Source: Bacilli bacterium
Lineage (GTDB): Bacteria > Bacillota_I > Bacilli_A > ML615J-28 > CAG-698
NCBI GenBank assembly: GCA_050174575.1
Contig: JBFXJT010000007.1
Location: 6,648-70,647 of the forward strand
Reading direction: 5' to 3'
DNA: 64,000 bases
Shown: positions 22,225 to 44,527 of the stretch, in pieces
Layout: each line of letters opens with the position of its first letter
How positions within the stretch are numbered: position 1 is the first letter of the stretch
Made by a program: the position numbers and the translations under genes
The notes under the pieces: model-generated
Database searches by the model: none
Seen by the model: the letters and a program-made list of their open reading frames with translations, nothing else
Told to the model about the DNA's origin: nothing

Positions 22225-22241
22225 GAAATAACTCCTTTCAT

Positions 22242-22273
22242 AAAAAAAGCTGTTGTCTTTTAAAGACAACAGC
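22242..22273 (-). terminator. riboswitch-controlled intrinsic terminator
   Basis: Minus strand reads GCTGTTGTCT-TTAAA-AGACAACAGC, a perfect 10-bp stem, followed by TTTTTTT. Confidence 0.85.
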
Positions 22274-22435: not shown

Positions 22436-22446
22436 TAACTAATACT

Positions 22447-28757: not shown

Positions 28758-29284
28758 AAAAAATAATATTATTCCTCCTTTTTGTTAGTTTACTTGCTAT
28801 CGTTGGTTGTACAATTGGTGAAAACACAACTGTTAAAATGTCTTTAAAGTCTGGTATCGATACAGTTGAAATTAATAGCGAATATGTTGATCCAGGTGTC
28901 AAAGCAACTTTTGGTTTATTGAGCCTTGATGTCAAGGTCGTTTCTTCAACCGTCAACACCCAAATGCTCGGGGCTTATGAAATTGTTTATGAAGCTAGTT
29001 ATAACGGTATTTTTAAAACAATTACACGAATAGTGACTGTAATTGATGATACTGCCCCTATTATTTACTTAAATCCTGGTGTTGACACTATTTTAATCGG
29101 TGAAAATTGGGTTGACGCTGGTGTTACGATAACCGACAATAGCAATGTTGTGATTGACCCCATCATAACTGGAGAAATTAACAATCAAGTTGTTGGTGAT
29201 TATGAAATTGTTTATCAAGCAAAAGACTCAAGCAACAATATTAATCAAATTATCCGTATAGTTCATGTTATTGATAACGAATAA
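28754..29284 (+). CDS. lipoprotein with two DUF5011-like Ig domains
   Basis: 176 aa. Lipobox LLAIVGC. Modules SGIDTVEINSEYVDPGV and PGVDTILIGENWVDAGV. The ATG overlaps the protease stop (ATGA). Confidence 0.6.
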   Translation: MKKIILFLLFVSLLAIVGCTIGENTTVKMSLKSGIDTVEINSEYVDPGVKATFGLLSLDVKVVSSTVNTQMLGAYEIVYEASYNGIFKTITRIVTVIDDTAPIIYLNPGVDTILIGENWVDAGVTITDNSNVVIDPIITGEINNQVVGDYEIVYQAKDSSNNINQIIRIVHVIDNE

Positions 29285-29308
29285 AAAAAGGTCCGATTTT
29301 CGGACCTT
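29283..29308. terminator. bidirectional terminator between convergent genes
   Basis: AAGGTCCG-ATTTT-CGGACCTT forms an 8-bp stem. It is flanked by an A-run on the left and a T-rich stretch on the right. Confidence 0.7.
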
Positions 29309-29309
29309 C

Positions 29310-30230
29310 TCACATTAAATTATTTATTTCATCTAAGGTAGGAAGGGCATCAATTGCCCCTTTTTTTGTTGTCACTAACGCGCCTGAAATATTACCAAAC
29401 CGTAAAATTTGTACAATTTGCTCATCAGTTAAATCATCAATATCTAATTTGTCTAAATTGACTAAAACACCAGCATAGAAAGCGTCTCCTGCACCCGTTG
29501 TATCAATTGGTTTTACAATAATTGATGGTACTTTGAGCAAGCGCCCATGGTGAAAAAAAACAGAGCCATCTTTTCCCAAAGTCAAAAAGACTATTTGGTT
29601 TTTTGTTGTGAGTTTCATCAATCCTTTTTCTAAATCTGTTTCACCAGTAAATAAAATTAATTCGTCTTGAGATATTTTTAAATAATCTGCCTTTTTTGCG
29701 TAATATGTATAAATGTTAATTGCTGTTTGCGCATCAACGAATAAATCATCGCGATAGTTAACATCAAAACTTAATGATTTATGGCTTTTTTTCACAAGTT
29801 TAATAATGTGATTTGCAAGTTCTCTTCCTTTTGGTTCGCTTAACAGTAATGAACCAAGATGAACAATATCAGCTTGTTTGATGGCTTCTAAGCTGGTTTT
29901 GGGGATATGAAAATCCGCTTGGTTTTTGTGATAAAAACTAAAGTGGCGTTCGCCATCATCGTCATTCGCAACAAATGCTAAAGTAGTATTGTGAAATGGA
30001 TCTTCCGTAATTAATGTTTTAGAAAAAGGAATTTTAGATGCAAAATCAATTAAAAATTGACCCATCAAATCAACTCCGACATTTCCAACGAACTGAACAT
30101 TTCCTCCATACTTAGCAATGCCACAAGCAACATTAAAAGGAGCTCCACCCGCAAATGTTTGATAAGACATCGTGTTATTAACTTTTTGACCTATTAAATC
30201 AACAAGGATTTCGCCAATACAGACTATCAT
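29310..30230 (-). CDS. fructokinase (PfkB/ribokinase family)
   Basis: Start moved to ATG 30230 (MIVCIGEILVDLIG), 6 nt after AAGGAG. The track start is a GTG overlapping lacI. Motifs GGAPFNVA and DTTGAGDAF. Confidence 0.8.
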   Translation of the reverse strand: MIVCIGEILVDLIGQKVNNTMSYQTFAGGAPFNVACGIAKYGGNVQFVGNVGVDLMGQFLIDFASKIPFSKTLITEDPFHNTTLAFVANDDDGERHFSFYHKNQADFHIPKTSLEAIKQADIVHLGSLLLSEPKGRELANHIIKLVKKSHKSLSFDVNYRDDLFVDAQTAINIYTYYAKKADYLKISQDELILFTGETDLEKGLMKLTTKNQIVFLTLGKDGSVFFHHGRLLKVPSIIVKPIDTTGAGDAFYAGVLVNLDKLDIDDLTDEQIVQILRFGNISGALVTTKKGAIDALPTLDEINNLM

Positions 30231-30240
30231 TTGTTTCTCC

Positions 30241-31203
30241 TTAAGTTGTTTCACCTAAAATTAAATTAGTTGGAACAAAAATGAATTCTTCCGATGTTTC
30301 ATGATTAATTCGTAATATCAGTTGATTAACAATGGCAACGGCAAGAGCTTCAATATCTTGTTTGACAACAGTAAATTTAGGATGTTGTAAAATCTCATCC
30401 ATGACTCCATCAAATGCAATGATTTTGATTTCTTCAGGAACTTTTTTTCCAAGTTGAGTAGCTATCTGAAAGCAAGTATTGGCAAAGGTATCACTTTGGG
30501 CAAAAATTCCGTCCAATGTTGGGTTCTCTTGCATAAATTGTTTTGCAACAACAAATTCTTCACCATGATATACATTCTTATAACAAGAAGTCGGAACCAT
30601 ATTATATTTTTGCATTACATCCAAATAAGCAAAGTAACGTTTTTGTGTTTCTGAAGGAGCAGTGGACATACCACCAATATAGCCAATGTGATGACACCCT
30701 TTTTGGACAAGATGCTCAATGGCTTTAAAAGTACTTTCATAATTATCACTTGTAACACAAGGAACGTTGTCGAGATGACGATCCAAAGTCACTATGTTTA
30801 GCCCTTTGAAATCAACATCCTGATATAAGTGATTGGTGATGAAAATAATCCCGTCGACTTGTCCTGTCTTAATCATATTCAATAAATGAACTTCTTTATC
30901 TCTTTTTCCTTGAGAACTGACAATAATCATTTTGAAACCTTTTTTATACAAGTAATCCTCAATGTAAAAAGCAATTTTACTAAAGAAAACGTGACTAATG
31001 GTTGGAACAAATAGGGCAACTAATCCAGATCTTTGTGCCTGTAGATTTCGCCCTAATTGATTAGGAATGTAATTGAGTGCTTTAATTGCATCTTCTATTT
31101 TTTTTCGCGATTCTTCAGATACATAACCGTTTTTATTAATGTATCGCGAAACAGTTCCCATGCCAACCCCAGCTCGTTTTGCAACTTCTTTCATTTGGGC
31201 CAA
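30241..31203 (-). CDS. LacI family transcriptional regulator
   Basis: 320 aa. N-terminal HTH MKEVAKRAGVGMGTVSRYIN followed by a periplasmic-binding-protein-like sugar domain. TTG start lies 8 nt after AGGAGG. Confidence 0.9.
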   Translation of the reverse strand: MAQMKEVAKRAGVGMGTVSRYINKNGYVSEESRKKIEDAIKALNYIPNQLGRNLQAQRSGLVALFVPTISHVFFSKIAFYIEDYLYKKGFKMIIVSSQGKRDKEVHLLNMIKTGQVDGIIFITNHLYQDVDFKGLNIVTLDRHLDNVPCVTSDNYESTFKAIEHLVQKGCHHIGYIGGMSTAPSETQKRYFAYLDVMQKYNMVPTSCYKNVYHGEEFVVAKQFMQENPTLDGIFAQSDTFANTCFQIATQLGKKVPEEIKIIAFDGVMDEILQHPKFTVVKQDIEALAVAIVNQLILRINHETSEEFIFVPTNLILGETT

Positions 31204-31237
31204 GGTAGTCGCCTCCTAACATGTTTTCATAAACTAT

Positions 31238-31246
31238 ATTATATCA
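31238..31246 (-). promoter_or_regulatory. extended -10 element upstream of the lacI-family gene
   Basis: The minus strand reads TGATATAAT. No good -35 is seen. Confidence 0.4.
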
Positions 31247-31290
31247 CTACGTACTACTATTTTTTAACCGTTTTTCGAAATATTGTAATG

Positions 31291-31339
31291 AAAGTAGTTC
31301 TTTCATGGATGATTAACATCATTTTGAAAGAACTACTTT
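31291..31339 (-). terminator. long hairpin after the 4-module lipoprotein gene (possible attenuating terminator)
   Basis: Perfect 15-bp stem AAAGTAGTTCTTTCA/TGAAAGAACTACTTT with a 19-nt loop. There is no clear T-run downstream, so efficiency is uncertain. Confidence 0.4.
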
Positions 31340-31353
31340 ATTATTAAACAACC

Positions 31354-34098
31354 TTATCCCATTTGATTAGTAATTGTTTGCCATGGAATATTGTGTGTTC
31401 GTTCGACAGTCCATTGATCGCTCGTATCTTTACTGTAAAGAGTTACGGTATCAAAGCCATTAGCAATATCTGGAGTAACTGCATAGTATGTTACAACTTC
31501 ATCAAAGAAGGCAACAGCCCAACCAGCTACTTCAATATCACAAAGTTCCAAATACAATTCCTGGCCTAAGTAAGCACTTAAATCAATAAAATATGTCCCC
31601 ATATCTGCCCATGATCCACCTAAATCTACACTTGGGAAATTGGTATCGCTAAAACGATTTTGTTTATATAAACCAATTTGTGTCCCGTCAGCTAAATAAA
31701 CTTTTACAGCTGCAGCATTAGCACCCATTTTTAAAGAAATAAAGCCTGTTCCGTGAAGAGTAAAATTGGTTGAGCGTAATGAATATTGCTCGCTTTCCGC
31801 AACACCTGAAGTCCATCCGTCAAAGTGATAATCACCGCTTTGGTTATATGGTAATTTTTCATTCCAATAATGTGTTTGACTTATAACAGCATTAACTGTA
31901 ACTTTTTCAGAAGTCCAACCAGTCATATCACCAGTTTCAAAACCTCCATTGATAATTAAACCATTATTGCCCATTTCCCATTCGATATTAACATCTGGTT
32001 CTTGGACACTGTCTTTTGTAGAACCAGCAACAGTATCAAAGCCATTTGCAACATCAGGAACAGTTGTATGATAGAAATTAATATCATCAAAGAAAGAAAC
32101 TGCCCAACCAGCTGTAGCTGGATCATCAATCAATTCAACATAAACTTTTTCGCCTAAATAAGCCGATAAGTCCGCAAAGTAACGTGTCATGGTCGCTAAA
32201 CGTCCACCATTAGCAAGGTATGGGAAATCAAAATCTTTGAAACGATAATTTGTGAAATAACCGATGACTGTTCCATCTTCTTTTACAACACGAACAGCGG
32301 CAGCTTTTCCACCCATCATGAAGGAAACCCAACCAGTACCAGATAATGTAAATAATCCAGAGCGTAAAGTATAACCAGCTGATTCCACGCTTGTTGCTGT
32401 CCAACCATCAAAATGGTAATTTCCTTGTTGGTTATAAGCAATCATTTCGCCCCAGAAAGTTTCTGCGCTTAAGGCACCATTAATTATATCGCCAAAAACA
32501 ACACTCCAACCAGTCATATCACCTGTTTCAAATCCACCGTTTGCGACATTGGTATCGGCAGAAACGACAACATTGAATGTGCTCGTAACTGTTTCGCTTT
32601 CATAAGTTGTCCCATAATGAACAACATATGTTCCTTCTTGATCAAAATCAAAAGCATCAAATCCTGTTGTAAACTCTGTTTCGCCTAAAACAACTTTTGT
32701 AATGACAGCTGGTACAGCCGTTTCGCCATAAGTTATCACGACATCAGCCATTAATGCTGTCAAGTTGTAATCATTTACCATCGCCGTTACAAAACCTTCT
32801 GCTTCAGTTTCAATCATTAAGGCAGGTAATTCAAATGGATAATCATAATTTGTATAGTATTCTTGTAAATGAGCTAGCGAATTATATGAATCGGTGTATG
32901 TTTCTGCCATAATTGCTTGGAAAGTAGATTTCATTAAAGCTTTTACTTCAACTTCCGTCATACTAACACGGAAATCATCAGCATTGATGAAAGCAAATCC
33001 GCTACTTGGATTGTTGTCCACAATCGAGATGTACAACACATCGCCAAGGTATTCGGATGCATCAACATAAACGCGACGTAATGTCAATGGTAATCCTGGA
33101 TCGTTAAATGTTGTATTAGTGACTTGGATTAATTCTGCATCTGTTGTTCCGTCATTAATAGAAATATAACAATTTGTTGGCCCAGAACCAATCATAAAGG
33201 AAATCCAACCATCACCGGCTAATGTGAATTTTGTAGAACGGATTGCTCCAACTGCTGATTCGGCAGTAGCTGCATTGTTATTTCCGTCTAAATAATAATC
33301 ACCTTCACCATAAACCATACGATCAGTCCAATAAAATTGTGATGTTGGAACGACAACTGTTCCACCAAATGCTGTACCGCTTAATTGTTTCCAACCAGTT
33401 AAATCACCTGTTTCAAACCCACCATTTGTAATCGTTGTTGATGTTGGGTCTTCTTCAAATTCTGGTTCTCCATAAGCTTCAATTTGGGCATCACGTTCTG
33501 CTTGCATAGCTGTAACTTCTGCTTCAGTCAAACAAACTACAAAATCATCTAAATTGACATAGCCATAATCATCGGTGTTATCACTGTCAGTTACTCTGAT
33601 ATAAATGATTTTATTCAAATGTGCTGATAAATCAACAACTCTTCTGATCATTTGATCAGTAATAAATGGTTCATCATAATCAGTATTCGTTATTTTTAAC
33701 AAAGCCGTGGCATTGTCTTTTTCAAAGAACTCAACAAAAATCTTATCTTGATTTTTTGCAGCTCCCATTTTAAAAGCAATTTTACCAGTTCCAGTTAATT
33801 TAAAGAAAGAAGATGTTAGTGTACCAACCATTTGTTGAGTACCACCATCCGTTCCACTGAACCAAAATTCTCCTGTTTTATCTACAGTAATTCCATTTAC
33901 TTTTAGATCATTAACGATACCGCGAGGACTAAAAGCCGTTTCTGTTTTTGTCCATCCCGTCCAAACTTCTGCTGTTCCAACTTCAAATCCACCGTTTGTA
34001 ATTTGGGTTGGATACTCTTCTTCTTTACCACATGCTGCTAACAATAATAAAGAGAGTGCTAGCATAAATACAAAGGTAAAACGCCATGTTTTTTTCAT
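31354..34098 (-). CDS. non-catalytic surface lipoprotein with four beta-sandwich carbohydrate-binding-like modules
   Basis: 914 aa. Lipobox LLLAAC-GK. Modules start with NGGFE(V/T)G at aa 33-190, 223-380, 518-690 and 715-886. Modules 1-2 resemble the N-terminal module of the adjacent GH32 (...IRVTDSDNTDDYGYVNLDDF vs IKIIDNDNNTDNYNYINVDDF). Modules 3-4 form a second subtype. An Ig-like spacer lies at aa 425-513. Confidence 0.6.
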   Translation of the reverse strand: MKKTWRFTFVFMLALSLLLLAACGKEEEYPTQITNGGFEVGTAEVWTGWTKTETAFSPRGIVNDLKVNGITVDKTGEFWFSGTDGGTQQMVGTLTSSFFKLTGTGKIAFKMGAAKNQDKIFVEFFEKDNATALLKITNTDYDEPFITDQMIRRVVDLSAHLNKIIYIRVTDSDNTDDYGYVNLDDFVVCLTEAEVTAMQAERDAQIEAYGEPEFEEDPTSTTITNGGFETGDLTGWKQLSGTAFGGTVVVPTSQFYWTDRMVYGEGDYYLDGNNNAATAESAVGAIRSTKFTLAGDGWISFMIGSGPTNCYISINDGTTDAELIQVTNTTFNDPGLPLTLRRVYVDASEYLGDVLYISIVDNNPSSGFAFINADDFRVSMTEVEVKALMKSTFQAIMAETYTDSYNSLAHLQEYYTNYDYPFELPALMIETEAEGFVTAMVNDYNLTALMADVVITYGETAVPAVITKVVLGETEFTTGFDAFDFDQEGTYVVHYGTTYESETVTSTFNVVVSADTNVANGGFETGDMTGWSVVFGDIINGALSAETFWGEMIAYNQQGNYHFDGWTATSVESAGYTLRSGLFTLSGTGWVSFMMGGKAAAVRVVKEDGTVIGYFTNYRFKDFDFPYLANGGRLATMTRYFADLSAYLGEKVYVELIDDPATAGWAVSFFDDINFYHTTVPDVANGFDTVAGSTKDSVQEPDVNIEWEMGNNGLIINGGFETGDMTGWTSEKVTVNAVISQTHYWNEKLPYNQSGDYHFDGWTSGVAESEQYSLRSTNFTLHGTGFISLKMGANAAAVKVYLADGTQIGLYKQNRFSDTNFPSVDLGGSWADMGTYFIDLSAYLGQELYLELCDIEVAGWAVAFFDEVVTYYAVTPDIANGFDTVTLYSKDTSDQWTVERTHNIPWQTITNQMG

Positions 34099-34115
34099 TT
34101 TTTTCTCCTTTTCCT

Positions 34116-36164
34116 CTATTTTACAATAATGTCATATTTGCTTATTTGCTTTAATATAGAACTTCCCCCAACAGTGAAAAATTCAATACCAGTGTCATTT
34201 AAGCCTGGGTAAACATTTCCAGTCATCGTAATATAACCATCATTAATAAAGACTTCAACACTGGAAACGTCTAAAAAGATTCGTAATTTTAAAATCCCAT
34301 TATTTAAGGAAACGTCAGCACTCCTAGTTTGACGGTTGATTTCCGCACCACTGATTGTTTCACCTGAATTTCCTCGATCAAAGATAACTGTTTGTGAAAG
34401 AGCATCATAATAAACTAATGTTTCGTTTTCTGTTCCTTTAAACAGTTTCACCCCAACTTTAGATGCAGATCCAACTTCAATTTCAAGTTCCAGTTCAACC
34501 GTCTTACCAGAAATTTGTGGGAGGACTAAGTTTCCATTAATCGTTTTATTTTGATAACTGACTTCATTTTGACGATAATTTTCGATTTCTCTAACTGGGG
34601 CTTGATAAATATGGCCATCTTTATAGGTCAATTCTCTTGGCAAGGTATAAGCACCAACCCAGTTATGCGCTTGTGTGACTAAAGTACGATCCCACATTTG
34701 CATCCATGCTAGCATAATTGTTCGTCCATCAGGCGTTATCATCGTTTGAGCAGCATAGAAATCAAATCCACCGTCAAATTCTTGAAATTCATCATAATTG
34801 AATTTCCCCGTTTGATAATCAATTCCACCAACCATATAAACTACCGAGTGAATATTTTCAAATTTCGTCTTGTCTCTTGGTAAATTTTGTGGACTAACAA
34901 TTAAAATCTCTTGATTATTTAACTCAATAAAATCTGGGCATTCATAAACACCATTTAACTGTAAGAAATTTGGTGCTTGAGGATTGTTATTGTTCATGAC
35001 TTTGCCAACATAATCCCAACTAGTTAAATTGCTCGAACGATAAAGGACAACCATGCCATAGCCATTTGCTTTCGTACCGATCAAACAATAATAATATCCA
35101 TCATGATAAAACACTTTTGGATCACGAAAATCAGCTGTTGATACACCGATTGGTACCTCAATTGTAGAAATAACTGGATTACGGGTTAATTTTTCAAAAT
35201 TAATCCCATCTTCGGACACTGCTAGATTTTGTGTTTGTTGATTATTGGCTACGCCAGTATACATGAGGTATAATTTCCCATCTTTTTCAATAGCCGTCCC
35301 ACTAAAGCACCCAAAATCTTGATCATATTTTTGATCGGGAGCTAAAGCTACAGGCTGTAATTCCCACTTAACAAAATCCTTCGTTGTTTGATGCCCCCAA
35401 TGCATTGGGCCCCAACTGCTGGCATAAGGGTTAAATTGGTGAAACAAATGACCTTCACCATTAAACCAAATTAATCCGTTGGGATCATTACTCCATCCTA
35501 TTGGAGATGCAGCATGATAAGTATGACGGTAAGTTGGGTTTACAGTATTAAGATTTTCAAGAACATATTGATATGCATCGTGTACTTTTCCCACTTGATC
35601 TTCAACTCCTTGATAATTAACGATAAAATCGTCAACATTGATGTAATTATAGTTATCGGTATTATTATCATTATCAATAATTTTTATTTGAACTGTTTTT
35701 CCAATATGACTACTTCCATCCAATATGACCCGATGGAGAGTATTTGGACTGCTTTCATCAAAATTTAAATTAGCGCGTGTTGCTAATTCATTCCCTCTTG
35801 AGTCAATTAAAGAAACATAACATAAGTCGACATTTGCTCCACCGCTAATCAAAAATCCGATTTTTCCATTCCCTTTTAATTGAAATTTTTCACTTAACAT
35901 AAAACCGGTTTTACTTAAGCCTGCTTTTTTACCATAAAAGAGAAATTCTCCCGTTTGGTTAAAGCGATTGCCATTTTCATCTTTGTCATTAAGAACAACA
36001 CCAGCATCAGTAAAAGCATCACCGTCTTCTTCCCAGTTTTTTAAGGTACCACTTTCAAAACTAGCGTTTAAAAAGGAATATTCGCCATCCACAGTTTGAT
36101 TACATCCTCCTAATATCATGATGAAAGAAAGAAGGATAGCAATCAAAAGCCATTTATTCTTCAT
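34116..36164 (-). CDS. GH32 beta-fructofuranosidase/exo-fructanase lipoprotein with N-terminal binding module
   Basis: 682 aa. Lipobox MILGGC-NQ. Canonical GH32 motifs WSNDPNG (35475-35495), FRDPKVF and YECPDF. Confidence 0.9.
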   Translation of the reverse strand: MKNKWLLIAILLSFIMILGGCNQTVDGEYSFLNASFESGTLKNWEEDGDAFTDAGVVLNDKDENGNRFNQTGEFLFYGKKAGLSKTGFMLSEKFQLKGNGKIGFLISGGANVDLCYVSLIDSRGNELATRANLNFDESSPNTLHRVILDGSSHIGKTVQIKIIDNDNNTDNYNYINVDDFIVNYQGVEDQVGKVHDAYQYVLENLNTVNPTYRHTYHAASPIGWSNDPNGLIWFNGEGHLFHQFNPYASSWGPMHWGHQTTKDFVKWELQPVALAPDQKYDQDFGCFSGTAIEKDGKLYLMYTGVANNQQTQNLAVSEDGINFEKLTRNPVISTIEVPIGVSTADFRDPKVFYHDGYYYCLIGTKANGYGMVVLYRSSNLTSWDYVGKVMNNNNPQAPNFLQLNGVYECPDFIELNNQEILIVSPQNLPRDKTKFENIHSVVYMVGGIDYQTGKFNYDEFQEFDGGFDFYAAQTMITPDGRTIMLAWMQMWDRTLVTQAHNWVGAYTLPRELTYKDGHIYQAPVREIENYRQNEVSYQNKTINGNLVLPQISGKTVELELEIEVGSASKVGVKLFKGTENETLVYYDALSQTVIFDRGNSGETISGAEINRQTRSADVSLNNGILKLRIFLDVSSVEVFINDGYITMTGNVYPGLNDTGIEFFTVGGSSILKQISKYDIIVK

Positions 36165-38544
36165 CCAGTGTTACCTCTTCATAAATTGATTTCATTGTTT
36201 TGACAGTCATTTGGTTTATGTTGACTTCACCATTTTCTGAAAACAAGAGTAACCCTAAAGATGAAGGATCGGGATAAATACGGGCAGAAATAGCTTTTTC
36301 ATTGTTGAAAAAAGCTTCAATTAAAGAACGGTCGAGGTAAATATCCATGACTAAAATATTATTATCTAAAACAAATGAGCCATAGAAATTTCCTGAAATG
36401 TTTTGGTTATCGCTTAATGCACCACTTAAACCTGTTTTTACTCCTAAGGTTTTTAATGTCTCATTAAAATAAAGCGTTGTTTCTTCTAACGTAGTGGCGT
36501 TCTTGCGAACTTTTATTCCAAACAAAGTAGCATTAATGTTTTCAAATTCTACGTGAATATAAAGCATGTCACCCTTTACATCAGTTAATAGGGTGTTGGC
36601 TTCACTGATGGACTTATTGCTCATTGTGACTAATGTCTCTTGGTAATAGTCTTCTAGTGCGGATACTGGGCGAATCATTAAATCCGTTCCGTCACTGTTT
36701 AAATAAACTTCTCTAGCCAGTCCAACACAGTTTGCCCACCCAGATAAATAGACATCCGATGGTTTCCTTTGATCCTGCATGATACTGAAAAGATAAGTTT
36801 TTTGGGAAACTGGATCAATAAAACCTGAAGGGCCAGTAAAAACATTATTACCATAATCAAGTAGTCTTGGAGTCGTCCCAAAAGCAGGATCGGGAATAAA
36901 ACGACCAGCAGTTTTATCGAAAGTACCAAGCCAATAATAAATATCATTATCGGCACTGTCAGCAGGAGCAGGACTAATAATCAACATATATTTTGTAATT
37001 GTTTTACTTTCGTTTGTTACGGGAAGCATAATCGGAAGTTCCCAAACAGGCCCTAAATCGGCAGGTTGATTGACTTGTTCGTACAATTGCCCTTTGTAGG
37101 TCCAATTATTAAACGAGTCATCCTTTGTTGTATAAAGTAAAGCTGTCCCACCAGTATTGATTTTGGTACTTGATGATCCAATTAGTAAAAACCAAGTATC
37201 TTCTTCTTGCCAAACATGGGCATCACGAAATTGTCCCGATGCTCCTTGACCAGCTACTTGTTTAATAGCTAATTCATCATCGATTACCCATTCTGTTAAG
37301 TAGGGATCGGTTGGATCTTTGGGCCTAGCAATACCAATGTTTTGATTGCTTATCAAACCATCTTTTTGATAAGAGTCATTTCCAGCAGTAAATAGTAAGA
37401 CGGGAATGCCTTCATTATCATAAGTTACACCACCGCTCCATACACCATCCGGACAAACGGAATCAGCTGTTGGGGTGATAACTTCTTTTAATGGACGCCA
37501 ATTAACCATATCATCACTGATTAAATGCCCCCATCCAATATTGCGAAAATAAGGGCCAAACATATTGAATTGGAAAAATAAGTGATAATACCCATTGTAA
37601 TACATTGGAGCATGAGGTTCATTCATCCAGTGTTGATAAGGACCACCATGATATTGTGTTTTATAAAAATCATCTGTCAGAATATTTTGTAACCAAATAT
37701 CCTCAAAAGCAATTTCCGGAACTGTCTTACTTTCGTAAACTTGCTTTACATCATTTGCTTGTAAACTGGCTTCATAGACTTTTAACTCATCAATCAATCC
37801 ACTTACCATATTTAAAGTTGCCGTAGCATTCGAACCTGGATAACTATTACGAGCAATGAGGAAGGGTTCGCCCGACGCTCCCATAATGGTTGCCCCTTCG
37901 AAAAAATAATCAATGTTGACTAATTCGCCATTTAAATATATGGCCATTTCGCCTTGATCACCATCGAAGGTTGCCACAATATGATTCCATTCATATTTTT
38001 TAAGGGGATTACCTTCATCCCATAAAGTTAACCATCGGTCACCAAGACCTACTTGAAAGCTCCAAGAACCATGGCGTTGATAGCCAAGAATAAATCCTTG
38101 GTTTTCACTTTTATTGTGTTGAGAAACAATCGCTGTTAATTTATCAGTTCCATTGTCTTTGGCATTGGGATCGTCCCACTCAAAGGCCCTTGGAGCAATC
38201 CAAACACTAATTGATAATTTTGAACCGCGAATTTTTAAATCTTCTTCTTGATAACGGATAAAATTAGAATATCCATCAAACAATAAGGAGCCATTATTGA
38301 TCCCTGTTGCGCGCCACTGTGGATCCTCAGGATTTTCCATAAAGCTAGGGTTTGTGAAAACATAAGCAACAGTCGCTGGAGCTTCGTTTTTCGAAGCATC
38401 ATTCACTTTGTTGCCCTGACCTTCATCAAAAGTTAAATGTAACAATAAATCTTTTGTATAAGGGTCGCTCTTTCCACATGCATATAAACTTGAAACAATG
38501 AATAATAGGAAAAAAATAGTCAATAGTTTTTTTGTTATCATCAT
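36154..38544 (-). CDS. LamG-domain + divergent GH32-like lipoprotein (WMNEPH variant)
   Basis: 796 aa. Lipobox SSLYAC-GK. N-terminal concanavalin/LamG-like domain (LFDGYSNFIRY...LSISVWIAPRAFEW...IYLNGELV). GH32 propeller with HWMNEPH (37612-37629), FRDAHVW and VWELP. Confidence 0.8.
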   Translation of the reverse strand: MMITKKLLTIFFLLFIVSSLYACGKSDPYTKDLLLHLTFDEGQGNKVNDASKNEAPATVAYVFTNPSFMENPEDPQWRATGINNGSLLFDGYSNFIRYQEEDLKIRGSKLSISVWIAPRAFEWDDPNAKDNGTDKLTAIVSQHNKSENQGFILGYQRHGSWSFQVGLGDRWLTLWDEGNPLKKYEWNHIVATFDGDQGEMAIYLNGELVNIDYFFEGATIMGASGEPFLIARNSYPGSNATATLNMVSGLIDELKVYEASLQANDVKQVYESKTVPEIAFEDIWLQNILTDDFYKTQYHGGPYQHWMNEPHAPMYYNGYYHLFFQFNMFGPYFRNIGWGHLISDDMVNWRPLKEVITPTADSVCPDGVWSGGVTYDNEGIPVLLFTAGNDSYQKDGLISNQNIGIARPKDPTDPYLTEWVIDDELAIKQVAGQGASGQFRDAHVWQEEDTWFLLIGSSSTKINTGGTALLYTTKDDSFNNWTYKGQLYEQVNQPADLGPVWELPIMLPVTNESKTITKYMLIISPAPADSADNDIYYWLGTFDKTAGRFIPDPAFGTTPRLLDYGNNVFTGPSGFIDPVSQKTYLFSIMQDQRKPSDVYLSGWANCVGLAREVYLNSDGTDLMIRPVSALEDYYQETLVTMSNKSISEANTLLTDVKGDMLYIHVEFENINATLFGIKVRKNATTLEETTLYFNETLKTLGVKTGLSGALSDNQNISGNFYGSFVLDNNILVMDIYLDRSLIEAFFNNEKAISARIYPDPSSLGLLLFSENGEVNINQMTVKTMKSIYEEVTLDEE

Positions 38545-38555
38545 CTTTTTCCCTC

Positions 38556-40904
38556 CTAGATTGTTTTCATTTTAATTACTTGCAAAACATCAACCATAAT
38601 TTGACCATCAGCAAATAACGACATTTCCGATGCATTGTTATAAACCATCGCCGTCAATGTTTGATACCCATTGATGTATATTTCAATCATTGCTCCATCA
38701 ATAAATATTTCTAAATCTAATACTTCCCCAGGAAGAAGAGAAATTCCTCCCCCAAAGATTCCTTTCACAACACTATTTCCAGAATTAGTTGTATCAATTG
38801 AAATAAATTGATCGATTGCGTTATAATTTAGGACTGTCTTTCTCCCTAGTTGATCTTCTTTTAAAGTAAGTCCAAAATTTTGAGAATTTTCATTAGTTAA
38901 TTGAACATGCAAGTATAACTGATTGCCGACCACTGATGCTAAAGCTTGGTTTGCAAATTCAATATTAGTATCTTTTTTATCAACAATGACATCAGTTTTT
39001 AAATTATTTAATTCGTTTAAAGGGGTAATTTTTAAACTGCCGGCATCATCAAGTGACAATTGACGAGGAATACCAGCAGTATGGGCCCATCCTGCATCAT
39101 AATCTTGATGACCATTTCGTTGGCCTTGAATAATGCTACAAATTAAAACACGTCCTGTTAGGGGATCCGTCGAAACCGTTGGCCCCGTAAACACATTGTT
39201 CCCAAAATCCATTAATTTTGGATCTTCATGTTCAGGAATAAAAGTCATCGTTGTTTTATCGAAGTCCCCCAAATAATAGTAAATATCATTATCCGCACCA
39301 GAACCCGCGGGAGAAAACGCAAATATATACTTAGAAACTGTTTTATTAGCGTTCGTTATTTTCGCAAGATTTACTAATTCCCATGTCGTACCCATATAAT
39401 TATGATAAACAGAAGGCATGAACAGTTCGCCTTGATAATCCCAATTCAAAAAAGAATCGTCTTGAGTTGTAAATACTTGGGCAGTTCCTTTATTATCATA
39501 ACGAGCAGATCCGACAAACATGTAGTAAGTTCCATCTTCAAAATAAATATTTGGATCACGAAATTCGTTTGTTTTGGCCATTGATGGTGTTGAGACGGCT
39601 ACTAATTGATCGCTTACATCCCACTCCGTTAAATCAGGATCGCTTAAATCTTTCGGTATTGCAATGGCGATATTTTGATTGCTCCATTGCCCAAAGCTTT
39701 TGGCATCATCACCGGCTGTAAAAAATAATACGGGTGTTCCATCAGCTTTGTATGACGCTCCTCCCGACCAAATACCATCAGGACAAACAGAATTTTTCAT
39801 AAGAATAATGGCTTCTTTCACATTGCGCCAATTGACCATATCAGGACTTACCCAATGACCCCATGCAATTTGCCGCCAGTATGGCCCAGTAAGATTAAAT
39901 TGATAAAACAAATGGTAATTTCCATTGAAATAAAACAAAGCATGTGGTTCATTCATCCAATGTTGAGGTGGTGAAGCATGATATTGAGGTTTGTATATAT
40001 CATCATCTAGCAATTCGTCATTAAGCCAAGCATCTTTAAAATCAATGGCTTTCATGCGGTTTTTTTGTACAAAACTGTTGTGATAGGCTATTATATCCTC
40101 TTCTTTAATTGATGCTTGGTAAATTTTAAGTTCGTCCATTAAACCATTGAACATATTAATTTCATAAAGGCCTGTTTTTTGGGGAACCTGGCTTTTTCCG
40201 ATATACAAAGATGTATTCGCAGCAATAATCTCGCCAAATACATCATTGTGAAAATTAATTATTTCCCCGTTTTTGTATATCCCCATAAATCCGTTTGTTC
40301 CATCAAAAACAAAGGTAAGATGATTCCAAGTATAACGGTCAAGATCATTCCACTCATTCCAAAGTTTAACCCAGCGATCGCCAAGTCCTATTTGAAAGGA
40401 ATATTCACCATATTTATGCATGCCGATAACAAAACCTTGATTTTCTGACATGATGTATTGCCCTAAAACAACTTGCAAATGCTCCGTTCCGTTAACAACT
40501 GCTCCTGGAACATCCCATTCAAACATCCTTGGGCTAATGAATAAATCAATAGTTAAGTTAGGACCGCTAATTTGAATATCCTGATAATCATATTTTATAT
40601 AATTCGAATAACCATCAAAGGCTAAACATGCACCACTAATTGCTGAATTTGTAATCCAAGTTGGATCAATCGATTGCTTGTATTCAGCATCCGTGAAGAC
40701 ATATTCAATCGTGGCTTTTGTCATTGTTGTTTGTTCAGTAAGTTCGTTACCTTCATTTTCATCAAAAGAAGTTGCAAATATTAATTTATCTTGATAAGGG
40801 TCATGATAATCGTGATAATAAATTGCATCCTCCTCTGTTTTTGCACAACCAATAAAGGCCATCATTAAACAAAAAACTGTGATAATTAATAAACCTTTTT
40901 TCAA
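38556..40904 (-). CDS. LamG-domain + divergent GH32-like lipoprotein (WMNEPH variant), paralog of the downstream gene
   Basis: 782 aa with a TTG start after GGAAGTGG. Lipobox AFIGC-AK. Same architecture as the paralog, with HWMNEPH (39942-39959), FRDPNIY and TWELV. Confidence 0.8.
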   Translation of the reverse strand: MKKGLLIITVFCLMMAFIGCAKTEEDAIYYHDYHDPYQDKLIFATSFDENEGNELTEQTTMTKATIEYVFTDAEYKQSIDPTWITNSAISGACLAFDGYSNYIKYDYQDIQISGPNLTIDLFISPRMFEWDVPGAVVNGTEHLQVVLGQYIMSENQGFVIGMHKYGEYSFQIGLGDRWVKLWNEWNDLDRYTWNHLTFVFDGTNGFMGIYKNGEIINFHNDVFGEIIAANTSLYIGKSQVPQKTGLYEINMFNGLMDELKIYQASIKEEDIIAYHNSFVQKNRMKAIDFKDAWLNDELLDDDIYKPQYHASPPQHWMNEPHALFYFNGNYHLFYQFNLTGPYWRQIAWGHWVSPDMVNWRNVKEAIILMKNSVCPDGIWSGGASYKADGTPVLFFTAGDDAKSFGQWSNQNIAIAIPKDLSDPDLTEWDVSDQLVAVSTPSMAKTNEFRDPNIYFEDGTYYMFVGSARYDNKGTAQVFTTQDDSFLNWDYQGELFMPSVYHNYMGTTWELVNLAKITNANKTVSKYIFAFSPAGSGADNDIYYYLGDFDKTTMTFIPEHEDPKLMDFGNNVFTGPTVSTDPLTGRVLICSIIQGQRNGHQDYDAGWAHTAGIPRQLSLDDAGSLKITPLNELNNLKTDVIVDKKDTNIEFANQALASVVGNQLYLHVQLTNENSQNFGLTLKEDQLGRKTVLNYNAIDQFISIDTTNSGNSVVKGIFGGGISLLPGEVLDLEIFIDGAMIEIYINGYQTLTAMVYNNASEMSLFADGQIMVDVLQVIKMKTI

Positions 40905-40916
40905 ATTACCACTTCC

Positions 40917-41843
40917 TTACTTCAATCCAGTAAAAGCGACACCTTCAATAATATATCTTTGAGCAAAAATATAAACTAAGGCGATCGGAATCGTACTAAA
41001 TGTTAAGGATGCCATAACTAAAGAAATATCTTTCGGATTAAAATTATTAATCAACTGTAAAAATACTTGCAAAGGTTGTTGCACTGGATTAGAGAACATT
41101 AATTGTGCAAACACATATTCGTTCCAACTTCCCATAAATGTAAAAATAGCGACTGTTGCAAATACTGGCAATGATAGAGGAACAATAACCTTAAAGAAGG
41201 TTGTTAATTTACTAGCACCATCAACATAAGCTGCTTCTTCTAATTCTTTAGGAATTCCCAAGAAAAAAGCCCGAAACATGAAGATATAAAAGGGACTAAC
41301 AATACCTGGTAATAAATAACCAATGACTCTCAATTCTGCTGTCAATAATCCCAAATTTTTTAAAATAACATACAAAGGAACAATAGAAGTCTCAACAGGA
41401 ACAATTAATATTAAAATAATGATACTAACGATGGTTTTATGACCAGGAAAAACAAAACGAGACAACGCATAACCGGCAAGTGAGTTAACTAATAAAACAC
41501 CTGTAATCGAAATTGTTGCATAAATGACACTGTTAAGAATGGATCTTCCAAAATTATCAAAAGTTGCAAATAAATTTTGATAAGATAAAAACCATTTGCT
41601 GATATTCCAAGTAGCTGGTAAAAAGGTTTTTATGGAATTGATGGAGGCATACACTTCTGCTTGAGTTTTAAAACTATTCGAAAGCATCCATACTACAGGA
41701 AATAAAAAGATAATGCATAGCACGATTAAAAAAATTCTAAATAATGTTTTCGCAATTATTTCACGAACTGAGTAATGTCTTTTTTGTTTTTTAGGCAATT
41801 GTAGTATTGATAATGGAATGTTTTTTCGCTTCTTTTTCATCAT
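40917..41843 (-). CDS. carbohydrate ABC transporter permease (MalG-like)
   Basis: Six TM helices and an EAA-type loop (ELEEAAYVDGASKLTTFFKVIVP). Start placed at MMKKKRKN (41843 or 41840) after GAGGTG, rather than the track start that overlaps the upstream gene. Confidence 0.9.
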   Translation of the reverse strand: MMKKKRKNIPLSILQLPKKQKRHYSVREIIAKTLFRIFLIVLCIIFLFPVVWMLSNSFKTQAEVYASINSIKTFLPATWNISKWFLSYQNLFATFDNFGRSILNSVIYATISITGVLLVNSLAGYALSRFVFPGHKTIVSIIILILIVPVETSIVPLYVILKNLGLLTAELRVIGYLLPGIVSPFYIFMFRAFFLGIPKELEEAAYVDGASKLTTFFKVIVPLSLPVFATVAIFTFMGSWNEYVFAQLMFSNPVQQPLQVFLQLINNFNPKDISLVMASLTFSTIPIALVYIFAQRYIIEGVAFTGLK

Positions 41844-41850
41844 TATCACC

Positions 41851-42783
41851 TCAAATTGTGTTATCTTTCTCAAAGACTTTTCTTAAGGTTAAAGCAATCG
41901 TAGCCATAAAGATGGTATAAATTAAAGCGATGGCACTTGAATAACCAACATCCCGGAAATTAATACCTTGCAAATAAATATAATAAGACATCGTTAAGGT
42001 CCGGTCAATCGGACCTCCTCTTGTCATAATCATTGGTTGGGTAATCAACCTAAATGCCCCAATCATCATTGTAATCAGCACAAATGAGAATGTAGGCTTG
42101 ATGCTAGGAAGGGTAATCCGCCAGAATTGTTGGAATTTATTCGCTCCATCGATGCTTGATGCTTCATACAGCTCTTTTGGAATATTTTTTAGTGCTGACA
42201 AGAAAATTAACATTTGGTAACCTGCTCCCTGCCAAGCAGAAATCATGACAATTAAATCCATGGCTTGTTCGGGATCGCTTAAGAAAAGTTGTCTCGATAA
42301 ACCAATAGTTTCAAGGAGGGCATTTATCAATCCATCTTGCTCATTCAATAAGTTAATCCATAACATCGATGTGACCGCCAATGACAACATTGTTGGCACA
42401 AAGAATGCCCATCTAAAAAAGGTATTTCCCTTCATTGGCTTATTTAAAATCAAGGCTAACAAAAGAGCTGCACCAAGTTGTAACGGAATAACTTTTAAAA
42501 CAAATTCCATTGTGTTTTTAAATGCTTGAAGAAGAATTTTATCTTGAAAGGCATTTTTAAAGTTTGCAAAACCAATAAAAGTTGTATTATTTAACTCTAA
42601 TAAATTGGCATCTGTAAACGAATAGGCTAGAGAAATAACAATGGGCATAATGACAAATATAATTCCTAAAATAACAGCAGGAAGCAAAAAACTCCAACCT
42701 ATAATCGTATCAGAAGTTCGGTATGTTTTCCCAAATAATTTAAAATACATTCGGGTATTTGGTTTTTTTACAGATCCTACCAT
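41851..42783 (-). CDS. carbohydrate ABC transporter permease (MalF-like)
   Basis: 310 aa. EAA loop ELYEASSIDGANKFQQFWRITLP. Confidence 0.9.
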   Translation of the reverse strand: MVGSVKKPNTRMYFKLFGKTYRTSDTIIGWSFLLPAVILGIIFVIMPIVISLAYSFTDANLLELNNTTFIGFANFKNAFQDKILLQAFKNTMEFVLKVIPLQLGAALLLALILNKPMKGNTFFRWAFFVPTMLSLAVTSMLWINLLNEQDGLINALLETIGLSRQLFLSDPEQAMDLIVMISAWQGAGYQMLIFLSALKNIPKELYEASSIDGANKFQQFWRITLPSIKPTFSFVLITMMIGAFRLITQPMIMTRGGPIDRTLTMSYYIYLQGINFRDVGYSSAIALIYTIFMATIALTLRKVFEKDNTI

Positions 42784-42793
42784 TTTTCACCTC

Positions 42794-44134
42794 TTAATTG
42801 TCAATTTGAACGACTTGAGTGTCAATGTAATCTTCTAAATTGTATTCTGTTGTTCCATTCATTGTTTCGATGTATTCAATAATTTTACTGTAGCTACTAC
42901 TTACTTTAGGATAGTTGATCATTTTTGGTCGGGGAGTAGCAATTTCTTGTAAAATAGTTGCTAATGAACCTAAAGCTCCCGTTTGGAATCCTGTTAAATC
43001 ATTCAAAAGTGATTTATGGGTTGGAAATGTTCCAATTGATTCATACATTAATTGGCTTCCAGTAACTCCTGTTATATAAGCAACAGCAATCGCTGCTGAA
43101 GCAGGATCGGATGAATTAACCGTTACTCCAAATCCCCATGAACCACAACCAGCAACCGGCGTTCCTTTTGTAGTTTCGTCTTCATAAACAGGCATCGGCA
43201 TAATTCCATAACTTGGAATAAAAGTATTATAATTTTTCTTAATCGTCGAAATATTCCATGGTCCGTGAATTTCAAAAGCGCATTCTCCACCTGCTAAAGC
43301 ATCTGTATTGCTGCCATTGTAAACCCAAGGTTCGCCATCATCATCGGGGTTGAAGAACATTTCTAACATTTTAATTCCTTTAATAGAATTAGAAGAGTTA
43401 AGGGCACCATCAACGACTTCATTGGCGCCAAAGAAACTCCCACCTGAAGAATATATTAATGATGAATATAAATACATGACACCTTCATCGCCACCAAATC
43501 CTAAGTTCAATTTAATTCGATATTCAAGGTTGGCAGCTTTTAGGGCAACCATTGCTTCCATAACATCAAGCCAAGACCAAGGATTAGTAACTGTCCCAAA
43601 ATCTTCTTCATCATAACCAACTTGCTTTAATAAATCCTTATTAAAATACATTCCAGTTGGCGCATCCATACCGGATAAAGCATATAATTTTCCATCAATC
43701 GTACTTTGTTCGATGACGCTGTCAACATAACTCGAAGTAATATCAGTTGTTAAATATTGATCAATCGGTGCTAAAATGCCCGCATCAGCATAAGCAGCTA
43801 TATTAGGGGCATCAACAGCAACAATGTCAGGAAGTCCTCCTGATAGAATTTCCGCGTTGATTGCTGTTTGTAAAGTATCAGAACTGTTTTTAAATTCTAA
43901 TTTCATTTTTAAAATTCTTGTTCCATCAGCAGTTTTTAATTGTTGTTCATTAAACAATTCAGCAATTGTGGAATAAACAATCCCTTCATCTTCTGCTTCG
44001 GATTTATGAACCCAAACCTTAATTACTTTTACCTCGTCCGTATCTTCATCTTCTGCTGGACCACAACCAACAAACACCAAGAAACTAAGCAAAAGTACCA
44101 TAACACTTAAAAAAAGTTTTCCAAAATTTTTCAT
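42794..44134 (-). CDS. extracellular sugar-binding lipoprotein of the ABC transporter
   Basis: 446 aa. Lipobox LVFVGC-GP. Family-1 solute-binding protein features. First gene after the promoter. Confidence 0.85.
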   Translation of the reverse strand: MKNFGKLFLSVMVLLLSFLVFVGCGPAEDEDTDEVKVIKVWVHKSEAEDEGIVYSTIAELFNEQQLKTADGTRILKMKLEFKNSSDTLQTAINAEILSGGLPDIVAVDAPNIAAYADAGILAPIDQYLTTDITSSYVDSVIEQSTIDGKLYALSGMDAPTGMYFNKDLLKQVGYDEEDFGTVTNPWSWLDVMEAMVALKAANLEYRIKLNLGFGGDEGVMYLYSSLIYSSGGSFFGANEVVDGALNSSNSIKGIKMLEMFFNPDDDGEPWVYNGSNTDALAGGECAFEIHGPWNISTIKKNYNTFIPSYGIMPMPVYEDETTKGTPVAGCGSWGFGVTVNSSDPASAAIAVAYITGVTGSQLMYESIGTFPTHKSLLNDLTGFQTGALGSLATILQEIATPRPKMINYPKVSSSYSKIIEYIETMNGTTEYNLEDYIDTQVVQIDN

Positions 44135-44223
44135 TTTCGTTCATCCTTTCTTATTATTGTTGAAAATGTGAAAATAGTTTGTTTTATAAAGTGAAAAAGA
44201 GATCTAGAAAATACAAATTTAAG

Positions 44224-44237
44224 TGGAATCGTTTCCA
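44224..44237 (-). promoter_or_regulatory. LacI-type palindromic operator, site 1
   Basis: TGGAATCGTTTCCA is a near-perfect palindrome around the central CG. It lies in the 5' UTR, about 90 nt upstream of the SBP start codon. Confidence 0.55.
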
Positions 44238-44279
44238 TGTTTTGCTAAAAAAAAGAAAAAATCTTATTTTTTTAAAATG

Positions 44280-44293
44280 TGGAAACGATTCCT
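44280..44293 (-). promoter_or_regulatory. LacI-type palindromic operator, site 2
   Basis: TGGAAACGATTCCT is the inverted copy of site 1 (both share GGAATCGTTTCCA). It sits immediately downstream of the predicted -10 and transcription start. Confidence 0.55.
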
Positions 44294-44305
44294 CTAGTTG
44301 CTTTT

Positions 44306-44334
44306 ATTTTAAACCACCCCGTTTTTTTTGTCAA
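44306..44334 (-). promoter_or_regulatory. near-consensus sigma-A promoter of the fructan locus
   Basis: On the minus strand: TTGACA (44329-44334), 17 nt, TAAAAT (44306-44311). Confidence 0.7.
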
Positions 44335-44360: not shown

Positions 44361-44391
44361 ATAAAAAATACTATGGCGTTTCCCATAGTAT
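44361..44391 (-). terminator. intrinsic terminator after tRNA-Ser(CGA)
   Basis: Minus strand reads ATACTATGG-GAAACG-CCATAGTAT followed by TTTTTTATTTTT. Confidence 0.75.
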
Positions 44392-44436
44392 CTAAAAACT
44401 GATTGTTATTCTCTTCTTATTTTCTTAATAATTTAA

Positions 44437-44527
44437 TGGCGGAGGAGAAGGGATTTGAACCCTTGCACCGTTTTACCGATCTGCTCGCTTTCGAGACGAG
44501 TCCCTTCAGCCGCTTGGGTACTCCTCC
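44437..44527 (-). tRNA. tRNA-Ser (anticodon CGA)
   Basis: 91 nt. GGAGGAG acceptor, anticodon stem-loop CTCGT-CTCGAAA-GCGAG, long variable arm, T-arm AAGGGTTCAAATCCCTT, encoded CCA. Confidence 0.9.

Follow-up and report, generated by a model that had tools for sequence, protein, structure and literature searches.

A probable surface-operated fructan locus

We propose that a 15-kb gene cluster of a Bacilli bacterium is likely to be a Gram-positive-type polysaccharide utilisation locus (gpPUL) for inulin-type fructan, worked entirely on the external side of the cytoplasmic membrane. The cluster lies in a 64,000-nucleotide stretch of contig JBFXJT010000007.1 (assembly GCA_050174575.1), hereafter the window, and comprises nine closely packed genes at positions 29310-44334, all on the minus strand. 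They encode the solute-binding protein (SBP) and two permeases of an ATP-binding cassette (ABC) importer, three GH32 enzymes (GH32_1 to GH32_3), a 914-aa lipoprotein, a LacI-family regulator and a PfkB-family kinase. That the substrate is a fructan we regard as very well founded on these sequences; that it is inulin in preference to levan is a choice we favour with less assurance.

Gene families were assigned with Pfam and NCBIfam. An earlier sequence-only reading of the window had described a fructan utilisation locus with the gene content and order given above, and both parts of this description agree with our results: the nine minus-strand genes fall into the expected families, and the fructan assignment finds support in the GH32 families, in modules resembling those of carbohydrate-binding module family 38 (CBM38), and in the presence of a GH32 gene within 10 kb in 81 of 82 loci that carry a homologue of the 914-aa protein. 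With three GH32 genes, an SBP and two permeases, a LacI-type regulator and 15 kb on a single strand, the cluster also falls within the definition of a gpPUL given by Sheridan et al. 2016 (PMC5320581).

The 914-aa protein as an array of CBM38-like modules

No Pfam domain is found in the 914-aa protein (the binder). Its AlphaFold model is confident, with a predicted local distance difference test (pLDDT) score of 86, and consists of four β-sandwich (jelly-roll) modules at residues 28-192, 218-383, 516-706 and 710-912 and a central immunoglobulin (Ig)-like domain at about residues 425-512. All four modules are homologous to one another and to the N-terminus of GH32_3 (hhalign 99.9%). No sequence relative of the modules was detectable in the PDB, CBM66 included. 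CBM66, the levan-binding module of Bacillus subtilis SacC, was considered as their identity and set aside, as they match the solved CBM66 in neither sequence nor fold.

A search with module profiles over 1.84 billion representatives returned 2187 proteins, most of which contain 2-10 module copies. The modules are fused to GH32 in 28 of the 145 top representatives of the family, and no other catalytic Pfam domain occurs in its 31 long members that lack GH32. Several of the fusions share the exact layout and length of cycloinulo-oligosaccharide fructanotransferases (CFTases). The named CFTases of Bacillus (Niallia) circulans (O52973, 1503 aa) and Paenibacillus polymyxa (1333 aa) match the module profiles themselves, with domain E-values of 1e-17 to 1e-53. 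In O52973 three modules are N-terminal and one is C-terminal, while the P. polymyxa enzyme has N-terminal modules at residues 76-241 and 261-392 (profiles A2 and A3) plus one at the C-terminus. The third and fourth modules of the binder are 37% identical to the CFTase repeats over 411 aa.

CBM38 corresponds to residues 32-389 of the 1333-aa P. macerans CFTase, two β-sandwiches that bind inulin (PMC10076258, citing Lee et al. 2004). The N-terminal pair of the P. polymyxa enzyme (76-392) lies essentially within this defining stretch. On the basis of the homology to the CFTase repeats, the most fitting description of the 914-aa protein is a separate lipoprotein in which four CBM38-like modules form a stand-alone array, the family being identified by proxy through the P. 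polymyxa and B. circulans CFTases. Its predicted function as a surface fructan binder follows from association, namely the GH32 linkage and the GH32 fusions. More than 440 cluster representatives make up the binder family; none of them is named and none has a Pfam domain.

Two Glu-type and one Asp-type GH32 enzymes

All three enzymes belong to GH32, with 185-305 bits for the GH32N and 64-121 bits for the GH32C domain, above the Pfam gathering scores. Three different GH32 architectures had been claimed for the operon in the sequence-only reading; there are three genes but two architectures, LamG-GH32 (twice) and CBM-GH32 (once). GH32_1 and GH32_2 have the domain order Laminin_G_3, GH32N, GH32C. 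The motifs of GH32_1 are WMNEPHA (E319), FRDP (D450) and WELV (E509), and those of GH32_2 are WMNEPHA (E309), FRDA (D441) and WELP (E502), where RDA and WELP are variants of the triad motifs. Among 120 LamG-GH32 homologues, WMNEPH[ASV] is present in all 120 and the exact WMNEPHA in 116.

In endo-inulinases a glutamate serves as the nucleophile: E43 in INU2 and E323, together with D460 and E519, in the enzyme of Arthrobacter S37 (PMC3829992, PMC5984348). The positions and spacing of E319/D450/E509 and E309/D441/E502 resemble those of the Arthrobacter triad, which points to an N-terminal extension of comparable size, about 300 aa, in that enzyme. Over about 770 aa, the unit of LamG and GH32 domains shares 35-39% of its residues with the corresponding core in O52973 and in the P. 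polymyxa CFTase, with E-values of 1e-148 to 1e-170. Individually, GH32_1 is 35% identical to the CFTase core over about 760 aa; for GH32_2 the identities are 39% with the B. circulans CFTase core, 40% with GH32_1 and 38% with the actinobacterial protein P0353, whose NCBI name, endo-inulinase, has no known experimental basis. Fungal INU2 (3rwk) is a mid-rank match among the solved structures (E 1e-25 to 1e-27). By sequence, GH32_1 and GH32_2 are placed in the endo-inulinase/CFTase clade. The CFTase layout of one polypeptide with N- and C-terminal repeats and WMNEAHA was not found in either of them, both being without repeats.

GH32_3 shows the canonical Asp-type motifs WSNDPNG (D227), FRDP (D348) and YECP (E408). 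Its N-terminal 200 residues are unannotated in Pfam and contain one CBM38-like module at positions 29-185 (profile A2, 1.3e-56). The protein scores 428 bits with scrB_fam, above the cut-off, and among solved structures it comes closest to fructofuranosidases of the exo-acting type and to an exo-inulinase. We predict that GH32_3 is an exo-β-fructosidase, and we infer that the Glu-type GH32_1 and GH32_2 are endo-acting inulinases paired with it. For the latter two, we give hydrolysis a slight preference over transfer. In some relatives a single chain unites GH32 domains of the Glu and the Asp type, mirroring the gene pairing seen here. Among large GH32 proteins of the Paenibacillus/Halalkalibacter type (P0422-P0531), we noted some with an Asp-type WMNDPNG and a Glu-type WMNEPHA or WQNEPGG domain per chain; these proteins are mostly SLH-anchored, and a lipobox occurs in 1 of 110.

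Could the same architecture be aimed at levan (β-2,6) or at mixed and branched fructans, with the two LamG-GH32 paralogues dividing the linkage types between them? The 40% identity of GH32_1 and GH32_2 leaves them as distant from each other as from the CFTases and makes different specificities plausible, and the gut, rumen and digester sources of such loci contain grass levans and graminans. CBM38 of P. macerans is itself reported to bind levan as well as inulin (PMC10076258). Against this, the cited literature documents a glutamate nucleophile only for endo-inulinases (PMC3829992, PMC5984348), and here we see it in CFTase sequences. The two LamG-GH32 enzymes both carry this glutamate. To our knowledge, the characterised endo-levanases use an aspartate. 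We consider a levan or mixed-fructan target unlikely and retain inulin as the preferred substrate.

A second alternative is that one or both LamG-GH32 enzymes are cyclising, CFTase-like transferases, whose cyclic inulo-oligosaccharides would be imported as a private intermediate in the manner of the cyclodextrin pathway. The CFTases are the nearest experimentally named relatives of the LamG and GH32 core, the binder consists of repeats of the CFTase type, and the locus has no cytoplasmic exo-GH32. However, the nearest relatives of the characterised CFTases have WMNEAHA (59 of 110), as do the named CFTases, whereas GH32_1 and GH32_2 have WMNEPHA, like the protein named endo-inulinase. Moreover, the surface exo-fructosidase that the operon encodes could do nothing with cyclic products, and no candidate for intracellular ring opening is present in the locus. 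We therefore judge cyclisation to be very improbable. If it did occur, a pathway in which inulin is captured by the CBM38 array, made cyclic or exo-resistant at the surface and imported by the ABC system would operate in a widely distributed group of uncultured gut and digester Firmicutes.

Lipid anchoring of the exported products

Lipoboxes were assessed with a rule of the PROSITE PS51257 type (Cys at positions 15-35, Lys or Arg in the first 7 residues and an uncharged h-region). All five extracytoplasmic products pass and none of the four cytoplasmic or integral-membrane products does. The motifs are FVGC in the SBP (Cys24), FIGC in GH32_1, LYAC in GH32_2, GGC in GH32_3 and LAAC in the binder. 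The sequence-only reading had listed the same lipoboxes (VGC, IGC, YAC, GGC and AAC), and its view that the extracytoplasmic machinery is membrane-tethered is supported both by reading them directly and by the rule. A lipobox is also present in 112 of 120 binder homologues and 108 of 120 LamG-GH32 homologues, so by this sequence measure lipid anchoring is a family-wide trait.

An 894-aa S8 subtilase is encoded on the plus strand (26073-29284), convergent with the locus. Besides an Ig-like domain it has four Listeria-Bacteroides repeats, and its gene overlaps that of a 176-aa Ig-like lipoprotein (IVGC). The subtilase signal has no lipobox, which indicates that the lipoprotein form is not universal among the exported proteins of this organism.

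Importer, probable shared ATPase and kinase

The SBP_bac_1 binding protein and the two BPD_transp_1 permeases identify the importer as CUT1-type. No ABC ATPase is encoded in the locus and none of the MsmK type in the 64-kb window, in agreement with the earlier statement that a nucleotide-binding subunit is lacking. The only gene in the 64 kb with a Walker A motif and an ABC_tran domain (49757-50452) encodes the 231-aa partner of an FtsX/MacB permease. Two upstream ORFs (open reading frames) of 357 and 359 aa were considered as a hidden MsmK-type ATPase and rejected: they encode an acetate/butyrate-kinase-like protein and an amino-acid dehydrogenase. An ATPase gene is likewise absent from all 12 orthologous loci described below. 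CUT1 sugar importers without their own ATPase are common and are served by a shared ATPase of the MsmK/MsmX type (PMC7658222, PMC4519317). By analogy, the importer would be powered by a shared ATPase encoded elsewhere in the genome.

What the importer carries may be either of two things. No cytoplasmic GH32 is encoded in the locus. Either a hydrolase encoded elsewhere would act on imported oligosaccharides, or the polymer would be broken down outside the cell as far as fructose and the CUT1 system would import fructose. Orthologues of the SBP (50-92% identity) are conserved together with LamG-GH32 in the 12 loci. An SBP of the FusA type, which binds fructo-oligosaccharides, was considered and left unsupported, no FusA-type match having been found. 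For the kinase, the best NCBIfam family is fructokinase (212.6 bits, under the equivalog cut-off of 450), and the PfkB Pfam domain is present with 179.5 bits; it is probably a fructokinase.

Transcription and regulation

The distances between successive genes among the first seven are 10-17 nt or slight overlaps. As the sequence-only reading had it, one promoter precedes the SBP gene: TTGACA-17-TAAAAT (44334-44306) is the top sigma-70 match in the region (11 of 12 positions), and its -35 and -10 elements are kept in the closest relative of the locus, L086. The sigma-70 scan as a whole does not exceed chance, with 69 sites against 67.6 expected. The 15-bp-stem hairpin that had been noted before lacI is also borne out (arms 31339-31325 and 31305-31291, free energy -23.7 kcal/mol, z -6.1); its stem is kept in L086, where it is followed by a T-run (TTTTAT). 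The TGATATAAT of the second promoter, which lies ahead of lacI and the kinase gene, is likewise kept in L086. The strong terminator at the end of the locus (29285-29311) is common to the locus and the convergent plus-strand genes.

Ribosome-binding sites allowed three start codons to be judged. For permease 2, GAGGTG stands ahead of ATG 41843 and no such site ahead of TTG 41873, the start of the longest ORF, so that the ATG is the likely start. For the kinase, a good site accompanies ATG 30230 and none the longest-ORF start GTG 30254; the database call is also 306 aa, and ATG 30230 is likely to be the start. The TTG start of GH32_1, which supplies the signal peptide, is backed by AAGGAAG.

The stretch that follows the -10 element of the structural operon contains TGGAAnCGnTTCCA twice (O1 and O2), O2 being a copy with 0 mismatches. 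The same 14-mer precedes the SBP gene in 11 other loci of this kind (10 and L086), usually in two copies; the count covers every related locus whose SBP upstream region is available. O1 lies inside a 26-nt block that is identical in L086, and O2 retains its arms there, with the two central bases exchanged symmetrically. By phylogenetic footprinting, the conserved pair are candidate operators of the LacI type. At the sequence level the regulator fits such a role, as it combines an HTH_LacI domain with a periplasmic-binding-protein fold and palindromic sites lie at the promoter. Its CcpA score of 144 bits is below the cut-off of 442, so it is not CcpA. No operator was found ahead of lacI within 2 mismatches.

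In the window, O1 and O2 have opposite orientations and might base-pair in the leader RNA; their direct orientation in L086 makes a role as DNA operators more parsimonious. A leader-RNA hairpin of O1 and O2 was therefore treated as secondary.

A model of fructan capture and its difficulties

The gene products suggest the following course of events. The lipid-anchored binder would capture the polymer with its four CBM38-like modules. The two lipid-anchored LamG-GH32 enzymes would then cleave it internally through their glutamate nucleophile, like endo-inulinases or CFTases, and the lipid-anchored GH32_3, an Asp-type enzyme with one CBM38-like module, would trim the ends of the fragments. The SBP may pass short fructo-oligosaccharides or fructose to the two-permease CUT1 importer, energised by an ATPase encoded elsewhere, and the PfkB kinase would phosphorylate the fructose. 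Finally, the LacI-family protein, co-produced with the kinase from its own promoter, would act as a repressor that shuts the seven-gene structural operon through the two operators.

Several points weigh against this model. The endo-inulinase assignment depends on one residue and on clade membership, and the characterised proteins closest to these enzymes act as transferases and not as hydrolases. The reported binding of levan besides inulin by CBM38 means that the modules do not fix the linkage specificity. The SBP has no close characterised relative, nor a close solved one. Since there is no cytoplasmic GH32 in the locus, import of oligosaccharides would need a hydrolase encoded elsewhere. 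A mobile variant of the cassette, L083, pairs an orthologous SBP (58% identity) with a GH32 that has no signal sequence, which argues for oligosaccharide import and exposes a gap in the locus studied here. The hairpin between the binder gene and lacI lacks a good U-tract in this genome. In addition, the operators also match the consensus of the catabolite-responsive element (cre), so CcpA could share them or compete for them.

Distribution and mobility of the cassette

A scan of species-representative genomes for binder homologues gave 80 loci, all from metagenome-assembled genomes (MAGs). The loci with binder homologues come from Clostridia, Lachnospiraceae, Oscillospiraceae and Christensenellaceae. 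Orthologues of this SBP and of both permeases are also present in 12 loci, and 6 of these 12 have three GH32 genes. In the cultured Pumilibacter muris CLA-AA-M08 the order is SBP, two permeases, LamG-GH32, module-GH32, LamG-GH32, a 1041-aa binder, LacI and PfkB, with a lipobox on every exported product. The sequence-only reading had called the GH32 complement unusually rich. Three GH32 genes are indeed present, but the layout of three GH32 genes with a binder is not unusual among its relatives, recurring in those 6 loci and in P. muris.

The closest relative (L004/L086, GCA_964646985.1) is 79% identical at the nucleotide level over 44098-29347, and its binder is 91% identical in amino acids. 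Its cassette is flanked by genes unrelated to those flanking the locus in the window, and hence the cassette has moved. L004/L086 is deposited as 'uncultured Bacteroidales bacterium'; this label is difficult to square with the genes present and with the MAG of the window being labelled 'Bacilli', so that one of the two taxonomic labels is probably wrong. The 914-aa binder is identical to a hypothetical protein recorded at NCBI for a MAG labelled 'Bacilli bacterium'.

Phage-type integrases, TnpV and an rve transposase surround a related cassette, L083/L084, which encodes an SBP, two permeases, PfkB, LamG-GH32, a signal-less 499-aa GH32, a 719-aa binder, LacI and a 632-aa MalK-type ATPase. The assembly collection lists the LamG-GH32 of this cassette (P0187, gene 10001-12394) in 1499 blocks, for the most part on contigs of 10-20 kb. 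From these sequences, L083/L084 looks like a very widespread mobile element that bears fructan utilisation.

The locus could also be seen as a recently acquired island at a tRNA gene, perhaps not integrated into host metabolism, and this would explain the missing ATPase and the missing cytoplasmic GH32. A tRNA-Ser(CGA) gene (44437-44527), with a terminator-like hairpin at 44366-44393, lies just upstream of the locus, about 100 bp from the promoter; the closest relative carries its cassette amid entirely different flanks, and the L083/L084 cassette sits inside an element flanked by integrase and transposase genes. On the other hand, no integrase was found in the flanks within the window and no repeat of the tRNA region of at least 11 nt at the distal end, the GC content of the locus is 35.2% compared with 33.5 and 34.2% in the flanks, and there is no tRNA at the L086 junction. 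With no integrase, no att-like repeat and no shift in GC, insertion at tRNA-Ser is unsupported, and we regard a recent, unintegrated island as distinctly unlikely.

Comparison with known fructan systems

Known fructan gpPULs, such as Eub-3/Eub-4 of Eubacterium rectale and a Roseburia inulinivorans cluster that inulin induces (PMC5320581), likewise co-locate GH32, an ABC importer, LacI and a fructokinase, have no SusC/D, and often lack an ATPase for the ABC system. They contain one GH32 enzyme, in some cases with CBM66, whereas the present locus has three lipid-anchored surface GH32 enzymes, two of them Glu-type LamG-GH32, as well as a stand-alone CBM38-array lipoprotein and no cytoplasmic GH32. 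The CUT1 importers of Streptococcus suis, S. pneumoniae and B. subtilis that are served by MsmK/MsmX also consist of an SBP and two permeases without an operon ATPase (PMC4519317, PMC7658222). Unlike these importers and the present locus, the related mobile cassette encodes its own 632-aa MalK-type ATPase.

The CFTases (O52973; P. polymyxa/macerans) share the CBM38-type repeats, the LamG-like domain and a GH32 domain whose nucleophile position is occupied by Glu. In the CFTases, all of these blocks form one secreted polypeptide with WMNEAHA and no lipobox (1 of 110), whereas here they are separate lipoproteins with WMNEPHA. The endo-inulinases INU2 of Aspergillus ficuum and EnIA of Arthrobacter sp. 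S37 have the glutamate nucleophile in WMNEP, as do GH32_1 and GH32_2; INU2 differs in that it is not their best match among solved structures.

In the fructan PUL (polysaccharide utilisation locus) of Bacteroides thetaiotaomicron (BT1757-1765), SusC/D, the surface glycan-binding protein BT1761 and the surface endo-levanase BT1760 are combined with periplasmic exo-GH32 enzymes and a fructokinase. The logic is alike, with a lipoprotein surface binder, a lipoprotein endo-fructanase, exo-GH32, fructokinase and a dedicated regulator, but the parts are unrelated. In contrast to that system, the locus studied here has no outer membrane or SusC/D, an ABC importer in place of TonB-dependent uptake, an unrelated CBM38-array binder, and LacI in place of the hybrid two-component sensor. 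Furthermore, the B. thetaiotaomicron system targets levan through an Asp-type endo-enzyme.

In the open-access literature that we searched, of which coverage is incomplete, we found no account of LamG-GH32 proteins, or of CBM38 proteins that stand alone, from the fructan loci of Firmicutes. The division of CFTase/endo-inulinase domains among lipoproteins, the stand-alone CBM38 array and the lack of a cytoplasmic GH32 are undescribed in that literature. The locus is an ordinary kind of Gram-positive sugar locus with a conserved layout that is so far undescribed, and its importance is moderate because every component comes from a known family.

Inulin is the most widely used prebiotic, and the harvest of the inulin polymer by gut Firmicutes is far less understood than that by Bacteroides. 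Our analysis suggests that the locus is a Gram-positive counterpart of the surface binder and endo-enzyme of Bacteroides, built from split CFTase/endo-inulinase parts. Public data hold, besides the binder family, more than 1,300 LamG-GH32 cluster representatives, and nearly all members of both groups are annotated as hypothetical or generically. Recognition of the CBM38 array could provide a functional annotation for hundreds of hypothetical proteins and a marker for degraders of inulin at the polymer level. The cultured carrier P. muris makes the model testable.

Features of the locus and its neighbourhood

Table 1. Genes and sequence elements of the proposed fructan locus, in window coordinates.
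Feature	Position	Strand	Basis or remark
SBP gene, 446 aa	42794-44134	-	SBP_bac_1 5.5e-28
ABC permease 1, MalF/UgpA-like, 310 aa	41851-42783	-	BPD_transp_1; UgpA-like 1.6e-41
ABC permease 2, MalG/UgpE-like, 308 aa from ATG 41843	40917-41843	-	BPD_transp_1
GH32_1, LamG-GH32 lipoprotein, 782 aa, TTG start	38556-40904	-	Pfam, motifs
GH32_2, LamG-GH32 lipoprotein, 796 aa	36154-38544	-	Pfam, motifs
GH32_3, CBM38-like module and GH32, lipoprotein, 682 aa	34116-36164	-	GH32N 9e-91
914-aa four-module lipoprotein, predicted surface fructan binder	31354-34098	-	Module homology
LacI-family regulator, 320 aa, TTG start	30241-31203	-	LacI HTH 1.6e-19 and Peripla_BP_3
PfkB-family sugar kinase, 306 aa from ATG 30230	29310-30230	-	PfkB 1.3e-52
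Structural-operon promoter, TTGACA-17-TAAAAT	44306-44334	-	Sigma-70 match 11/12
Candidate operator O1, LacI-type pseudo-palindrome, TGGAAACGATTCCT (+ strand)	44280-44293		Starts 13 nt past -10
Candidate operator O2, TGGAATCGTTTCCA	44224-44237		56 bp centre-to-centre from O1, about 69 nt past -10
Hairpin between binder gene and lacI	31291-31339	-	15-bp stem
Second promoter, TTAAAA-18-TG-TATAAT, extended -10, for lacI and kinase	31238-31267	-	
Terminator ending the locus	29285-29311	-	12-bp stem, 5 GC pairs, T-run

Elsewhere in the window, a lysine riboswitch (22262-22438, 81 bits) stands ahead of an apparent lysine fermentation operon, the whole occupying 13732-22438 on the minus strand. The operon encodes a MaoC-like dehydratase, CoA-transferase A/B, a β-keto acid cleavage enzyme, a dehydrogenase, lysine 2,3-aminomutase and the α and β subunits of D-lysine 5,6-aminomutase. 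Because the riboswitch precedes a catabolic operon and not one for biosynthesis or transport, the opposite regulatory logic would be needed. An α-glucan cluster on the minus strand (1126-9375) encodes a GH77 4-α-glucanotransferase, a glycogen/maltodextrin phosphorylase and a GH13 α-amylase-family protein, and is adjoined by the gene of a 760-aa protein with GH9 and CelD_N domains. A BspA-type leucine-rich-repeat lipoprotein with the lipobox LTAC is encoded at 11753-13435 (minus strand), next to a tRNA-Val gene (13570-13644). Finally, a PAS-GGDEF-hemerythrin protein, encoded at 22517-24157 on the minus strand, is possibly a diguanylate cyclase that senses O2 or redox state.

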